Source: a virus. From it: DNA of 21,724 nucleotides. The translations under genes were made by a program, and so were the position numbers. Shown piece by piece: positions 3,816 to 19,227 of the stretch. Location of the stretch: the UHGV virus genome UHGV-0132790. One strand, written 5' to 3'. Below the pieces are notes generated by a model, which saw only the letters and a list, made by a program, of their open reading frames with translations, searched no databases and was not told the origin of the DNA. Every line of letters starts with the position of its first letter. Position 1 is the first letter of the stretch.

Positions 3816-4034
3816 TCACAACGACGCTGCTTTTACGGGTAAGCCATCGCGCCCGATGAAAACTTTAATCATGCAGTCGGTAATGCATGTTTTTGTTGTG
3901 AAGTTACGAATATAGAGTTTTCTCTTTTCAATATTGTTTGCTGAAGCGATATATGTCCGACCTTCATGAAGAACATAATCGCCAGGCGTCACGCACTGAC
4001 GTGGTATTTCATCAGTTCCGAAGTGATGAGCAAT
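3816..4034 (-). CDS. Hypothetical small protein (about 73 aa)
   Basis: ORF in operon orientation. I chose the ATG at 4034 (MIAHHFG...) because GGAGA lies about 6 nt upstream; the ORF track starts at a GTG at 4055. Confidence 0.35.
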
Positions 4035-4210
4035 CATAATTATCTCCATTTTCACAAATGAACTTTGTTGATGCGGTGCCTGGTGCCTCCAGGTGACGTT
4101 AACCAGTTAACAACTAACGCCGGGTCAGGGGACGATGACTTTCCGTGACATCCTGTCGGTTTAACTGTTCCGCGTGCGCATAGCCGCATTCACCGCATCA
4201 CAAAATTCAC

Positions 4211-4254
4211 TTTAAAAAGGGCGGACATCAGCAATCGGCAAACCGATGTCCGCC
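4211..4254 (-). terminator. Intrinsic terminator inside the early-left operon (tL-like)
   Basis: Perfect 10-bp stem GGCGGACATC / GATGTCCGCC (4219-4228 / 4245-4254) with a 16-nt loop. On the minus strand it is followed by CTTTTTAAAG. Confidence 0.5.
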
Positions 4255-4493
4255 AAGGGCTACACACAGCAATGTTGTTATTCACAACCGGAAGCGCACG
4301 GTCGAAGAAATCTAACGACAAGCCTTCAATGGGAAAGAGTCTTCGCCGTGCACTTTCGTGTTGTACCCTGGCTTTCAGGGTAATGTCTGTTCAGTAAACT
4401 GAGAGTGCCGGAACTTACCCGTGTCCGGCGCACGATCTCCACCTCACCCGTGGAGAACTCCTCAACTACAAACCCCGTAAGGAGAGTGAATTT

Positions 4494-4703
4494 ATGACAC
4501 AAGAAGAAAAAGTGATGTTTCTGATGCGGCTGGCTGTCGATACCTACAACACACAATTCAGGGAGAAAGATATACCTCAAAAGGCAGTTCCTGCTGCGGT
4601 AGATAAGGGCGGTGCTATTGCCGTATTTTACGATGCATTTGAATCATTTTTTAATGAAAAACTCGACGCTGTTAGCGGCTTCGGAACATCGAGTAATAAA
4701 TAA
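4494..4703 (+). CDS. Small hypothetical protein (69 aa) encoded antisense to the early-left operon
   Basis: ATG at 4494 preceded by AAGGAG with 8-nt spacing. A plus-strand hairpin plus T-run follows at 4722-4756. Confidence 0.45.
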   Translation: MTQEEKVMFLMRLAVDTYNTQFREKDIPQKAVPAAVDKGGAIAVFYDAFESFFNEKLDAVSGFGTSSNK

Positions 4704-5031
4704 CGTTCATTACGGTTCTTAAACAACAATCAGTGGGCTTGATGTTGTTCTTTTCAAGCTCACTTGCCATCACTTCCATTATTCTTGCACTTACACGAAT
4801 TATTTGGTGGCTGTAAGCGATGCAACTGTCGCTGATATTGCTGTTTATTTCTATTACTTCATTTTCACCATTAGCATCAACTTCGGATGCGCTGTTTTCA
4901 TTATCCTGTTTCAGTGCTTTTTCTGCCATCTGGATGCGTGTCAGCGTTGCGGAATTTGGGCTAAGTCGATAAACCTGTCTGGCATCTTCCAGAAGCAGGG
5001 CGATAATGTGCTTCAGTTCTGTTTCGTTCAT
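4672..5031 (-). CDS. Hypothetical protein (about 119 aa)
   Basis: ATG at 5031 (MNETELKHIIALL...) with GGAG 7 nt upstream; the track's start at 5052 is a TTG. The 3' end overlaps the convergent 4494-4703 gene and its terminator, so the C-terminal extent is uncertain. Confidence 0.4.
   Translation of the reverse strand: MNETELKHIIALLLEDARQVYRLSPNSATLTRIQMAEKALKQDNENSASEVDANGENEVIEINSNISDSCIAYSHQIIRVSARIMEVMASELEKNNIKPTDCCLRTVMNVIYYSMFRSR
4722..4756 (+). terminator. Putative intrinsic terminator for the 4494-4703 gene
   Basis: AACAACA...TGTTGTT stem with an inner TCA/TGA pairing, followed by CTTTTC. Confidence 0.4.
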
Positions 5032-5062: not shown

Positions 5063-5776
5063 TCAGGCGGTCAGCTCTTTAAGCTTCTGAACTGCTTTAT
5101 TCATTTCATCCATACAGTCGATGAATTCGTCCAGTTTAAGCTGCATTTTTCCGGCGGCCTGAAGAATTTCAAGTTTTAAGGGCGCAAGTTTTTTGTTGAA
5201 TGCATCATCTTCCTGGCGTTTTTTCTCCGCAATTTCGGCGGCTTTCAGCAATTCTTCAGCCTGTTTTCTGAGTATTTCTGGTGAAGGTGAAACTGCTTTG
5301 AGGTTATTCATTTCAGGTTCCTGTTGTTGCAGAATTAATTTGTTGCATTCTCTGCGTGAGCGTTTCATTGCAGATTCGCACTTCTTGCAATAAATGGCTC
5401 TCCCGTCACGCTTGCTGGCATCTGAATAAAAATCATTGACTGATTTTGTCTGCCCGCATCTGGTACATAATTTTGATTGAAGGTCCTTAATGATTGTGAC
5501 GTTTCCTTCCCGTTTGGGATATCCATATTTTTTGTGGCGGAAAAAGGTTACTCCGTTACCAGAACCTTCTTTTCTGACCTTAAATACAATGATGCTTTCC
5601 CGTTTATCGATAAAATCTATGAGCTGGTTTCTCTCCTTTCCTGACAGTTCGGCAAATGTCTTAACTTTTTTAGTAACTTCCGTAAGGCGAACTCCATCAG
5701 GCATTTTTTCAACGAAGTTTTTAATCTCTGCAAGCGGACGCCATAACTTTTGCGGCAAAACTGAAGGCGTGGTCAT
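5063..5776 (-). CDS. Hypothetical protein (about 237 aa) with zinc-ribbon (CTRCG...CKKCE) and a K/E-rich probable coiled-coil C-terminus
   Basis: ORF immediately downstream of N. ATG at 5776 lies just after the N stop (TGATTGATG), suggesting coupled translation. Confidence 0.6.
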   Translation of the reverse strand: MTTPSVLPQKLWRPLAEIKNFVEKMPDGVRLTEVTKKVKTFAELSGKERNQLIDFIDKRESIIVFKVRKEGSGNGVTFFRHKKYGYPKREGNVTIIKDLQSKLCTRCGQTKSVNDFYSDASKRDGRAIYCKKCESAMKRSRRECNKLILQQQEPEMNNLKAVSPSPEILRKQAEELLKAAEIAEKKRQEDDAFNKKLAPLKLEILQAAGKMQLKLDEFIDCMDEMNKAVQKLKELTA

Positions 5777-5779
5777 CAA

Positions 5780-6163
5780 TCACCTCGCCGTCAGTTGTTT
5801 TGATTTCCGGTAGCCTGCCGCGTAAATGGCTACGTTTGGAAGACATACACCAGTTTCTGGTTGCTTATGTCCAAACTCATTCGCGTACACAATGGCTGCT
5901 CGCTCCAGATTGCGTCTGTATTCTTTCTGTTGCCAGATCACGTCCTGTGCCATGAACTTAATTGGCTTAGCGTCTTCTATGCGCTCAGGCGTTTCGTGAG
6001 TACCTTTAGCCTGAATCTGCGCTCTGCTTAGAGTAGGGCGGTGTAATACTTCTGAACTTATTGCTTCTTCGCGGGCCAGTACGCAGTTAGCTAATGCCTT
6101 TGCCTTTAAACGCTCACGACGACGAGAACGTGAATTGCCTTTGAACTGAGTTCTGCGTGTCAT
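5780..6163 (-). CDS. N: N-type transcription antiterminator (non-lambda allele; resembles the N of Stx/H-19B-type phages)
   Basis: 127-aa product MTRRTQFKGNSRSRRRERLKAKALAN... has an N-terminal arginine-rich motif like lambda N (QTRRRERRAEKQ). It is the first gene downstream of pL. AGGAGG lies 6 nt upstream of the ATG at 6163. Confidence 0.8.
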   Translation of the reverse strand: MTRRTQFKGNSRSRRRERLKAKALANCVLAREEAISSEVLHRPTLSRAQIQAKGTHETPERIEDAKPIKFMAQDVIWQQKEYRRNLERAAIVYANEFGHKQPETGVCLPNVAIYAAGYRKSKQLTAR

Positions 6164-6330
6164 ATGGAACCTCCTGATGAACTTTGGTGGTGTGGTAGGT
6201 GGGAGACCCATTTCGACCTGTTTCGGCCTACTTCAATTCGGCAATAGTCCCGCAGGCCTCGCCGCTTTACGTGCGACATATTCCCGTCCATGAACCCTTC
6301 ACCACACCCCAAAGTTCACTTTGGTTATTG

Positions 6331-6659: not shown

Positions 6660-7436
6660 CTAGGCTACCAGAGACTCAATCCAAGAGTCTCTGGTATGGA
6701 ATGGCAACACTCGTGCGGTATCATTAAATAGTAGTGATAGTTGCTGTAGCTCAGGTGTTAACCCATCGCTGTCAACTATTACAAATCTATTGTTTATGTC
6801 AGGAACGACCTGACTTAAGTCAACAATCTTCCCAACTGTTGAGTGGGCAGTATTCCATCCCTTACTGCTGGCAAGGCTTACCGTAAACCCGCGTTTTGGT
6901 GGTATTAGTCGAGACTCATTCCTTAGCGTTAACGGAACAGTAATGTTATGCCCACTAATACCTTTCACTTTTTCCTTTAAGGCTAGTCGCTTCCCAAGCC
7001 CTGCTGATTTTAAGTAACTGATTACACATTTTTCGAACTTATCGTCTTTGACCTCAGCATACCAATCAGCAGTTTGGGCGGATGCAAGAATCCCACCACG
7101 AATAACATTTGCAGTTACCTGTCCAACGGACGACTCATCTGCCCACGCAGATATCTCTCCAGAGTCATTTAATGAAATTCCTTGCGAAGCGAGTGATGAC
7201 CTGATCAGATCAATTTTCTTTTTAGTCAGGTGGATGCCGCGTGATTCAATATTCATCAATGTATCGCAGTAGTCTGTAACCCTATACTGACCACTCATCT
7301 CTTGAACGAATACACTTATCTGCTCACAATCATCGTAGTATGTGAATGGACTAATAACGCGCAGCAACGTGTCGCTCATTGGGTGGCATTCAAACCCGAG
7401 CTTAGATATGACTGTTGAACACGTTACATTTCCCAT
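6660..7436 (-). CDS. Hypothetical protein B (258 aa) of the two-gene cassette in the rexAB slot
   Basis: ORF between pL/oL and cI, same strand as cI. Its ATG at 7436 overlaps the end of the upstream gene by 13 nt. AT-rich relative to cI. No similarity to RexB or any family I recognise. Confidence 0.6.
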   Translation of the reverse strand: MGNVTCSTVISKLGFECHPMSDTLLRVISPFTYYDDCEQISVFVQEMSGQYRVTDYCDTLMNIESRGIHLTKKKIDLIRSSLASQGISLNDSGEISAWADESSVGQVTANVIRGGILASAQTADWYAEVKDDKFEKCVISYLKSAGLGKRLALKEKVKGISGHNITVPLTLRNESRLIPPKRGFTVSLASSKGWNTAHSTVGKIVDLSQVVPDINNRFVIVDSDGLTPELQQLSLLFNDTARVLPFHTRDSWIESLVA

Positions 7437-7966
7437 GATAACTGACCTGATTTATCTTGATTAGGTAAAGGTGGGCTGCCTTCATATATGATATTAAGCG
7501 CCTCGCAAAAATAATTCCAGTAGCCAAAAAAATCATCTGGCTTGATGTTCGTTTCAAGCTTAAGTGCAATTTCTTCCCCAGCTGATTCGAAGTACATGTG
7601 ATAGTGAGGACCTCGAGCCACCTCAACAAAATCTGGATGGTTCACTATAGATTTATTACGGTGTGGCTTGTTATCCGCAGGGTACGGATCAAGCGCGTAA
7701 ATGCGCCTGTCATGAAGAAACATCACAAATGAAATCTTCACTATATCCACCCCTTCAACGATAGGAGGACGCCAGTGAAGCATAAATCTTATGCCTGTGA
7801 TTGGGTTGCCAATTTCATCAAAAGCTTTGAGATCCAATTTAAACCAGATTGGGGTTCGTCCCTCACTTCCGGTCCATGTAACTCCGCTAAAAGTTACTTT
7901 TTTCAAGCGAGTAATAGCTTGGTCAACCTCTTTCTGGGTAGGCTTAAAGTCGCCTTTTTTAGCCAC
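7424..7966 (-). CDS. Hypothetical protein A (180 aa) of the two-gene cassette in the rexAB slot
   Basis: ORF starting 46 nt downstream of the cI stop, on the same strand. Only a GTG start is available at 7966, with GGTGA about 9 nt upstream. No similarity to RexA recognised. Confidence 0.55.
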   Translation of the reverse strand: MAKKGDFKPTQKEVDQAITRLKKVTFSGVTWTGSEGRTPIWFKLDLKAFDEIGNPITGIRFMLHWRPPIVEGVDIVKISFVMFLHDRRIYALDPYPADNKPHRNKSIVNHPDFVEVARGPHYHMYFESAGEEIALKLETNIKPDDFFGYWNYFCEALNIIYEGSPPLPNQDKSGQLSWEM

Positions 7967-8012: not shown

Positions 8013-8729
<717 letters not shown>

Positions 8730-14376: not shown

Positions 14377-14713
14377 GCTTGTTTCCTGTTGCGTTACGCG
14401 AATCATTATAGCGACTGTTGTGTAATGCGCAACGGTTGTTTGACAAAAATAGGTATCCGGGATTATATTCACCGCACGCCAGCAAAATCTGGCGTCGGGA
14501 TTGGCGTCCTGGATAGAGACCGCGACAGATACACGCCGCGAGCGTGTTTTTTATTGTCGTATGCACGCGCACATCTGAATTATGGTGGGCTGTGTGGGGG
14601 CGGAGAGATCCGCGCCGGTCGGTTTCCCGGTTACGCCAACCCTGCACAGTTCACCACCAGACGATTGGCGTCGTCGGTGGTGAGTTATTAAGAAACCACT
14701 CGAGGGCGTCATT

Positions 14714-18311: not shown

Positions 18312-18510
18312 TTGTCTGGCTGCCGGAGAATTTGTTAAAAATTACATCGCGTGGTGAATCCCCCTCAGCGGCGGGGCATCTGGCAAAGTGTATGATCCAG
18401 CGAACATGCAAATTCAGTAGCCAGGCTGAATTTACCGGGAGGCACCTGGCACCATGCGACAGACAGAAATTAGGCTATACTTCAGCCCCTCTCCGGAGGG
18501 GCTTTTCTGT
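18312..18510 (+). ncRNA. Candidate small RNA or late-leader unit A (promoter to terminator)
   Basis: TTGTCT (18312-18317), 17 nt, TGtTAAAAA extended -10 (18333-18341). Perfect terminator AGCCCCTC-TCCG-GAGGGGCT (18484-18503) followed by TTTCTGT. No convincing ORF. Confidence 0.4.
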
Positions 18511-18687
18511 GCAGGATGTGTCACAGTTTCCTGAATTCTGAGTACTGTCCTGTTACTCAGGGTGCTATATTTTCTGACGTGATGAAAGTCTGCCGGAAGG
18601 CGGAACGTATCGGAAATGACCCAGTAGAGAAAACGTTGACTCAGATACCGATGCTGAGTTACCGGGAAACCGGCATCACATGACCGC

Positions 18688-18780: not shown

Positions 18781-18993
18781 TTGTCTGGCCAGCGGGAAGT
18801 TTGTTAAAAAAATATGGCATGGTGAATCCCCTGTGCGGAGGGGCATATCAGCGACAGGTGTTTGGTCACACCCCTTATCCTTTCTGGTGCGGGTTCAGGT
18901 GCTGATACTGAACTCACCGGGAGGCACCCGGCACCATGCATGAACGGTACATAGCGCTACTCTCCAGCCCCTCTCCGGAGGGGCTTTCTTGTT
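18781..18993 (+). ncRNA. Candidate small RNA or late-leader unit B (diverged paralogue of unit A)
   Basis: Same architecture as unit A: TTGTCT (18781-18786), TGtTAAAAA (18802-18810), identical terminator hairpin AGCCCCTCTCCGGAGGGGCT (18966-18985) followed by TTCTTGTT. Shared internal blocks GGTGAATCCCC and CACCGGGAGGCACC.GGCACCATGC. Confidence 0.4.
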
Positions 18994-19227
18994 GGATAAA
19001 AAAAAGCCCGCGCCGGGAAGCGCGGGTGGCAAGGAATAAACAACAAAACGTGAAGTGATCAATTTTCAGCTGGCGAATAATACCCGACAGTAATCACTCT
19101 GTGCAACTGTATGGTCTTTTTCGTATTGCGGGCTGTAGTCATCCTCCTGTTTCTGAACCCTTGTCCATGACTGACGTCAGCCCGCACCTTATCTTGATTG
19201 CATACACTATCCCTGCCGGGAGGAATA

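Follow-up and report, generated by a model that had tools for sequence, protein, structure and literature searches.

The interval analysed here lies between kil and the next leftward gene of UHGV virus genome UHGV-0132790 (a 21,724-nt stretch of DNA, called the window below), and it comprises a structured non-coding region and a small gene, orf69, on the opposite strand. Its closest described relatives are the long untranslated regions ahead of kil and dicB in the Rac and Qin prophages of Escherichia coli K-12. The literature on dicF describes a long untranslated region, a 53-nt form of the RNA with a Rho-independent 3' end and a 72-nt form whose RNase III-generated 3' end lies 19 nt further on, with processing by both RNase E and RNase III (PMC5069750). 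KilS was predicted from RNA interaction by ligation and sequencing (RIL-seq), verified by northern blotting and found to be associated with Hfq, all for the K-12 copy, and its transcription from an independent promoter is possible (Bar et al. 2021, PMC8175672). Expression of Rac kilR is gated by NusG-dependent termination (PMC5793797). In the K-12 annotation of Rac, leftward kilR and kilS are followed by rightward sieB and leftward ydaF; sieB is a superinfection exclusion gene that falls in the PHROG category 'moron'.

The window is a lambdoid prophage with its early-left (pL) operon on the minus strand, and its layout around kil equals that of Rac. The interval is 99% identical in Escherichia phage PhiR5_2 and in the UPEC-245U prophage (UPEC, uropathogenic E. 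coli), and three of the four close records that we inspected leave the region blank. We conclude that the interval is probably the lambdoid equivalent of the Rac/Qin kil/dicB long untranslated region, joined by an accessory gene on the opposite strand. A first reading of the bare sequence (the original prediction) had proposed either an inserted, independently transcribed accessory gene ('moron') or a regulatory RNA region; both proposals are partly supported, each for a different part of the interval. The second is borne out by a KilS-type small RNA (sRNA) and a conserved kil/dicB leader, but this RNA is on the minus strand and has largely been described already. The anatomy of the interval and its homology to these systems we regard as established. 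Its main features are as follows.

3816-4037, minus strand: kil, 73 aa, a KilR-family FtsZ inhibitor (phrog_294, NF008465)
4038-4213, minus strand: kil leader ('module B'), ~175 nt, with a four-way junction, defined by conservation and covariation
4214-4302, minus strand: KilS-type sRNA, ~89 nt, a DicF relative with a 5' hairpin, the single-stranded region AAUAACAACAUUGCUGUGUGUAGCCCUU and a terminator; its 5' end is a probable one
4282-4493, readable on either strand: module A, a conserved untranslated stretch of ~190 nt with hairpins at 4289-4358, 4364-4382, 4408-4428 and 4436-4456
4494-4703, plus strand: orf69, a 69-aa open reading frame (ORF) starting with ATG and an accessory ('moron') gene (Prokaryotic Genome Annotation Pipeline, PGAP; phrog_2605)
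4672-5031, minus strand: convergent 119-aa gene of the pL operon (phrog_2982), whose last 32 nt overlap orf69

The kil gene was identified by profile matches to phrog_294 (Kil; E 8e-36) and, in full, to NCBIfam NF008465 (154.9 bits against a cut-off of 92), and the same gene is annotated kil in a near-identical UPEC prophage. It starts at 4037, so the non-coding gap spans 4038-4493. This corrects the boundary of the ~440-bp stretch that had been described as free of convincing ORFs; the description itself stands, in that no other frame of the gap is open across related loci, the open frames differing from locus to locus. The gap had also been credited with several strong hairpins, and it does fold far beyond shuffled sequences on both strands (z scores of -5.7 and -6.3, with 0 of 100 shuffles equal). 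Frequencies given below refer to 5,426 complete E. coli genomes and to a survey of 136 occurrences in phage contigs.

A KilS-type small RNA upstream of kil

Two further minus-strand elements define the sRNA.

4220-4232 paired with 4242-4254, minus strand: terminator stem of the sRNA, with a U-tract at 4214-4218
4309-4314, minus strand: candidate -10 hexamer TAGATT of the sRNA's own promoter, placed by homology to Rac

Judged by alignment, the minus strand of 4214-4302 holds a KilS orthologue. Positions 4299-4214 align with nt 7-98 of K-12 Rac KilS (b4833, a non-coding RNA of 98 nt), with three mismatches in the first 43 aligned positions and complete identity over the final 19 nt. Homology thereby extends over the single-stranded region and the terminator, and the RNA is located in the kil 5' untranslated region, with the kil start 176 nt downstream of the terminator. 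The perfect 10-bp stem that was expected to end leftward transcription is present (4220-4229/4245-4254); its minus-strand form has 13 pairs and runs into CUUUUU, and the terminator as a whole (4214-4254) folds at -23.9 kcal/mol (z = -4.96).

Like KilS of Rac, the window copy immediately precedes the conserved kil leader and has kil on one side and an opposite-strand gene on the other; its single-stranded region is near-identical (AAUAAC-ACAUUGCUGUGUGUAG) and its terminator is of the same type (GGCGG..CCGCCCUUUUU). It differs in having another 5' hairpin, a shorter terminator loop and CG in place of the TG of the extended -10 element in the Rac promoter. The Rac counterpart of that element, TGTTAAATT, stops 6 nt short of the annotated 5' end of KilS and, because the window sequence is homologous to the Rac KilS promoter, the sRNA probably begins near 4302. 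The GTTAnATTT columns of the candidate promoter region are invariant in the alignment (A3).

The Rfam DicF family (RF00039) matched only the terminator half of the sRNA, at 29.5 bits against a gathering score of 48, and the seed differs; we therefore rejected an assignment as DicF. The dicBF region of Qin nevertheless shares the module A block, an sRNA with an intrinsic terminator, a leader of ~170 nt and a cell-division inhibitor gene behind it, and the two terminator hairpins are homologous. What sets the window apart is its seed, which is not the UUUCUGGUGACGUUU of DicF, the lack of the ~115-nt DicF-precursor insert, and a next gene that is kil rather than dicB. Among the phage-contig occurrences, the sRNA position combines a common terminator with at least six types of seed.

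The seed types found 5' of AAAGTGAAT (contigs L018-L137) include DicF, KilS, CAUGUUGAUUACCUUUU, CCAUGUGUAGUAUUU and AUCAAUAUCCUCUUU, on the GGCGG..CCGCCCUUUUU scaffold, and the shared terminator stem covaries (GGCGG/CCGCC to GGUGG/CCACC). Separately, 16 nt of the core sRNA RprA, AUUGCUGUGUGUAGUC, are identical in KilS and in the window copy (4257-4272, minus strand), likewise just 5' of the terminator; the identity reaches 20 nt in some phage-contig variants (compared loci: L013 3906-4003 and L139 123-228). The shared stretch is outside the RprA seed defined for hdeD, the literature searched contained no paper naming both RprA and KilS, and we draw no conclusion about a functional link. The Pas sRNAs were also considered for the minus-strand RNA and rejected: they are located in late regions, and the paper on them is silent on DicF and kil.

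The structured kil leader

The leader between the sRNA and kil consists of two nearly invariant blocks on either side of a hypervariable arm, and two of its helices are used below.

4191-4208 paired with 4061-4078, minus strand: closing helix of the kil leader, from covariation
4079-4093, minus strand: CCUGG-AGGCA-CCAGG hairpin of the kil leader

Matches to the leader at 80-86% identity occur in 4,616 of the 5,426 complete E. coli genomes, and the genes behind its copies in the phage contigs are kil, dicB or others. Across 67 unique sequences, the closing stem has undergone ~33 one-sided changes, all of which still leave G.U pairs on the minus strand, and an inner stem shows nine compensatory double changes. 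Because the one-sided changes remain pairs on that strand and compensatory changes accompany them, the structure is assigned, on comparative grounds, to the pL-sense RNA, and we take its strand as established. The published RNase III end of the 72-nt DicF would map inside the closing helix, which, for that reason, is most likely an RNase III site.

A second RNA family, STnc100 (Rfam RF02076), matched the leader at 31 bits (E 1.5e-4 in a 1.5-kb search), short of its gathering score of 47; only the core motif is in common, and the assignment was rejected. Compared with STnc100 and PasD (Rfam RF02076; Zhu, Shabalina & Storz 2026 preprint), the kil leader has the closing stem, the GGUGAAU motif and the UCACCNGGAGGCACCNGGCACC hairpin, and its changes relative to the window's STnc100 copies are compensatory. 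It is, however, an early-left 5' leader without a terminator of its own, whereas STnc100 and PasD are found in the late region near esterase genes. The window contains two full-score STnc100 copies (140 and 130 bits) at 18319-18512 and 18788-18996 on the plus strand, in late-region DNA that precedes a 667-aa ORF. Counting the kil leader, the core GGUGAAU...UCACCNGGAGGCACCNGGCACC is present three times in the window.

orf69, a small gene on the opposite strand

The original prediction had placed a 69-aa ORF with a near-consensus Shine-Dalgarno (SD) sequence on the plus strand, and both were recovered: the ORF occupies 4494-4703, and TAAGGAG at 4478-4484 ends 9 nt 5' of its ATG. PGAP annotates the product as WP_000189937.1, a hypothetical protein, and its sole PHROG match is phrog_2605 (E 2.8e-44), in an alignment that spans residues 1-69 and all 69 positions of the profile. 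In other E. coli prophages, homologues with 57% and 47% identity lie antisense by kil or dicB, at the position that orf69 has here; Edwardsiella phage EPP-1 has a 49%-identical copy of 62 aa, also antisense, in its early-left region; and Buttiauxella, the single species-representative genome matched by a degenerate DNA pattern for the family, has a 59-aa homologue without the convergent partner gene. A profile search returned 15 family members among 1.8 billion representatives at the 50% clustering level. The 11 full-length members that we aligned measure 58-94 aa (most of them 58-69) and share the motifs MTxEEKVMFLMRLAVDTHNA and IExIYxKYExFLDKKL.

Conservation in related prophages was confirmed. 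Frame and length are retained down to ~30% identity, the homologues at 30-45% coming from other genera and contexts, and pairwise ratios of nonsynonymous to synonymous substitution rates (dN/dS) are below 0.5 (0.39-0.49 at dS 0.75-1.0). In codons 4-15, compared across five lineages, all eight variable nucleotide sites are synonymous (8/8). Because of these ratios and of the synonymous sites, we regard orf69, on its substitution pattern, as a genuine gene under protein-level selection, and the selection as established. Not all close relatives have the whole gene. Its 3' half alone remains in the viable Shigella Shiga toxin (Stx) phage 75/02, it is missing from Qin of K-12 (where the position holds no gene) and from O157 Wll001, and elsewhere other ORFs replace it.

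The AlphaFold model predicts a two-helix protein, with helices at residues 3-24 and 38-61, a poorly modelled linker and a mean predicted local distance difference test (pLDDT) score of 67 (models 64-67). An identification as SieB was rejected: orf69 matches neither Pfam PF14163 nor phrog_6399, whereas Rac SieB matches both.

A conserved leader with interchangeable small open reading frames

As a plus-strand sequence, module A is a leader that ends in the orf69 SD; its minus strand belongs to the long untranslated region of the pL operon. The plus-strand reading involves two predicted elements.

4372-4377 and 4395-4400, plus strand: weak candidate sigma-70 promoter for orf69 (CTTTCA, 17-nt spacer, TAAACT)
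4458-4462 paired with 4480-4484, plus strand: CUCCU as an anti-SD against AGGAG of the SD, in predicted folds

Module A has matches at ~78% identity in 3,562 of the 5,426 E. coli genomes; one of these, in K-12, is the Qin DNA that separates ydfC from dicF. The leader (...GTGGAGAACTCCTTAATTACCAACCCTCAGGAGGGTGAA) is conserved exactly to the SD in related contigs and then gives way to the ATG of unrelated ORFs. At least five unrelated families follow the identical junction: orf69, a 77-aa ORF (phrog_10348), a 92-aa ORF (phrog_18692), a 73-aa ORF (phrog_7249) and a 91-aa family. Related prophages as a whole have at least seven unrelated small ORF families, or none, after the leader, and a wider survey added further N-termini at the ORF position, including that of SieB. 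Where there is no ORF, the leader ends short of the SD and adjoins ydfC. The swapping of ORFs behind the leader we likewise regard as established.

Of the two mosaic joints of orf69, one falls exactly at the SD and the other inside the convergent gene, and the gene is present or absent among otherwise collinear relatives; on this comparison, the position after module A bears the signature of a moron position. The same place is taken by sieB in Rac, an opposite-strand gene by the KilS side of the untranslated region that converges on and overlaps the next pL-sense gene. The two genes have no sequence relationship (SieB has 162 aa and Pfam PF14163, orf69 has 69 aa and no Pfam family), and the leader before sieB has diverged from module A. 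The literature searched for a sieB promoter or for an antisense transcript near ydfC/dicF yielded nothing usable.

In 36 of 37 unique variants of module A, the candidate promoter, (T/C)TTTCA-N17-TAAACT, keeps its spacer at 17 nt; the hexamers are conserved, and the sequence between them varies. If it is active, it would give a weakly predicted start near 4407 and a 5' untranslated region of ~87 nt. The inserted, independently transcribed moron of the original prediction holds in part. Selection, the pattern of presence, absence and truncation, and ORF swapping behind the leader speak for insertion; as regards separate transcription, no promoter reached the scan threshold, the conserved candidate at 4372-4400 is weak, and there is no canonical terminator. 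Downstream of the candidate, the CUCCU/AGGAG pairing appears in both the minimum-energy and the centroid folds of 4430-4500 (plus strand), with all five pairs Watson-Crick in the 16 leader variants that have the SD; this pairing could occlude the ribosome binding site of orf69. Evidence from G.U pairs mildly favours a plus-strand RNA (the long helix has one invariant G.U pair, and hairpin 2 shows the series C-G / U.G / U-A).

The leader is far more conserved than the sequence that follows it and persists without an ORF in Qin of K-12 and in O157 Wll001, and these facts would suit a plus-strand transcript that is itself functional: a cis-antisense RNA that, through collision and RNase III cleavage of the duplex, damps leaky kil/pL expression, with the ORFs as secondary passengers. 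Such a role would also fit the toxicity and tight control of kil and dicB, and the fact that each ORF at the position converges on and overlaps a pL-sense gene. We nonetheless consider this explanation unlikely, since the ORFs come with good SDs whose distance from the leader is fixed, protein-level selection on orf69 is clear, and the Buttiauxella homologue has no convergent partner.

The 3' side of orf69 and the convergent gene

One plus-strand hairpin is relevant to the end of the orf69 transcript.

4732-4742 paired with 4754-4764, plus strand: 11-bp hairpin (-15.6 kcal/mol, z = -3.7), ~30 nt past the orf69 stop

The original prediction had a plus-strand element overlapping the 3' end of the convergent ORF. 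An overlap exists, in that orf69 itself extends 32 nt into the ORF at 4672-5031, but the stem region at 4722-4756 lies inside that gene. This stem region had been read as a plus-strand terminator, which we reject: it offers a 7-bp A/T-rich stem and four U, was passed over by the terminator scan and competes with a better fold, the minimum-energy structure being the 11-bp hairpin at 4732-4764. That hairpin has no U-tract behind it and sits within conserved codons of the convergent gene, those for SELEKNNIKPT, not at the gene's 3' end. It is kept in two related loci (L005 and L010), where the pairs that are not Watson-Crick form G.U on the plus strand alone, and it is absent from phage EPP-1. 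Its role may be that of a 3' stabiliser or of a weak stop, and it is no canonical intrinsic terminator, which leaves orf69 without the terminator of its own that is expected of a moron.

The convergent gene is of interest for its C-terminal domain of ~45 aa (LLEVMxSELEKNNIKPT..LRxVMxII..), which is found together with orf69 or its homologues in four lineages, those of the window, L005, L010 and Edwardsiella phage EPP-1, while the N-terminal part varies. O157 strain 9234, which has a different plus-strand ORF, has a convergent gene without this domain. The association could indicate a two-gene module, with orf69 as partner, antidote or regulator of the C-terminal domain or of Kil. We find this quite improbable: the frames overlap physically, so that they may be inherited together without any functional link; Shigella phage 75/02 retains a 118-aa convergent gene beside its truncated orf69; the Buttiauxella homologue has no such neighbour; and orf69 is found by either kil or dicB.

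Least credible of all is a non-functional orf69, held open by constraints on the minus-strand untranslated RNA and annotated by a pipeline only, for although the gene is unannotated or truncated in three deposited phage records, has no recognisable promoter or terminator and belongs to a small, narrow family, its conserved N-terminal codons vary synonymously only, its dN/dS stays below 0.5 at dS 0.75-1.0, its frame and length hold at 30-45% identity in other genera and contexts, and there is no such conservation of the frames antisense to it.

The layout recurs in another genus. In Edwardsiella phage EPP-1 (L017 2926-4522), the convergent gene that the orf69 homologue overlaps also has this C-terminal domain; the opposite strand has a terminator, GGCGGC..GCCGCCCUUUUU, at a distance of ~165 nt from the start of the ORF, and ~870 more unannotated nt precede rdgC.

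A proposed scheme of expression

For the lambdoid equivalent of the kil/dicB untranslated region with an accessory gene opposite, we propose the following scheme, in which the promoter, the timing of expression, the part of RNase III in this phage and the function of the protein are inferred. Transcripts from pL would leave the 119-aa gene and traverse ~630 untranslated nt. The ~89-nt KilS-type Hfq sRNA would arise within the pL transcript or from a small promoter of its own and end at the strong intrinsic terminator at 4214-4254, and the kil leader and kil would be reached by read-through transcripts only, by way of N antitermination or of relief from Rho/NusG termination as in Rac kilR. A cut by RNase III in the closing helix would then separate the sRNA from the kil mRNA. 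In the rightward direction, module A would provide a weak promoter candidate, two hairpins and an occludable SD leading to orf69. The layout and the position of sieB suggest that orf69 would be expressed in the lysogen while pL is repressed and that, after induction, convergent pL transcription and sense-antisense pairing would silence it; antisense regulation through convergent transcription, as first proposed, is plausible. The benefit of orf69 to the lysogen might be exclusion, defence or modulation of the host, as for sieB at the same position in Rac.

Several results weigh against this interpretation. In the window, the hexamers of the candidate promoter match at 3 of 6 and at 4 of 6 positions, the promoter scan gave no plus-strand site for orf69 at its threshold, and neither the terminator scan nor folding found a canonical plus-strand terminator. 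Module A has a lower RNAalifold energy on the minus strand (-40.6) than on the plus strand (-33.3), and because it is kept in prophages with no plus-strand gene behind it, its conservation may be owed to the minus-strand RNA. The protein has no match in Pfam, NCBIfam or PADLOC, nothing significant among PDB sequences (best E 0.17) and, for its model, nothing below E 5 in Foldseek searches of PDB and BFVD, and the role given to it above is a guess from its position.

A bolder extension, which we put forward with considerable doubt, is that module A may be a dedicated two-way expression platform present in most E. coli genomes: back-to-back promoters would serve, on one side, a DicF/KilS-type sRNA with a seed swapped between phages (at least six types on one terminator) and, on the other, a structured leader able to occlude its SD, with unrelated small proteins exchanged behind it at a precise joint. 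If so, it would be a previously undescribed hot spot for lysogen-expressed exclusion or defence genes, with expression inverse to pL activity and tied to kil/dicB control.

Most of the region has already been described under other names (KilS and the dicBF long untranslated region), orf69 is an annotated hypothetical protein, and our findings contradict nothing in current knowledge. The novelty is modest and consists of the conserved leader with interchangeable ORFs behind it and of the family relationships of the RNAs. For annotation, the gain is that a region left blank in three of the four close records can be given an sRNA of KilS type, the structured leader of kil and a genuine gene of 69 aa. 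This lambdoid early-left stretch is modular, with an sRNA position that has interchangeable seeds and an antisense position that has unrelated small ORFs behind one leader, and both positions adjoin toxic cell-division inhibitors that E. coli uses in stress responses. Should the antisense genes turn out to encode exclusion or defence functions that are expressed in the lysogen, the conserved leader would make many more of them easy to find.

Other features of the window

Upstream of the interval, the pL operon continues with two genes.

5063-5779, minus strand: 238-aa gene of the pL operon (phrog_2539)
5780-6211, minus strand: N-family antiterminator gene of the pL operon

Other members of the operon in the window are a 128-aa gene and recE. 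The middle part of the 238-aa product gave weak profile matches to Lar-like restriction alleviation and endonuclease VII/HNH-type zinc-binding families. Between N and an S24-type repressor gene (8013-8726), genes of 258 aa and 180 aa occupy 6660-7966 on the minus strand, which is the place of rexAB in lambda; at this position, a related locus has a DUF1828 protein. Finally, adjacent Rfam matches above their gathering scores to c4-a1b1, isrK and C4 antisense RNA at 14463-14661 (plus strand) suggest a P1/P7-type antisense module for immunity or antirepressor control.

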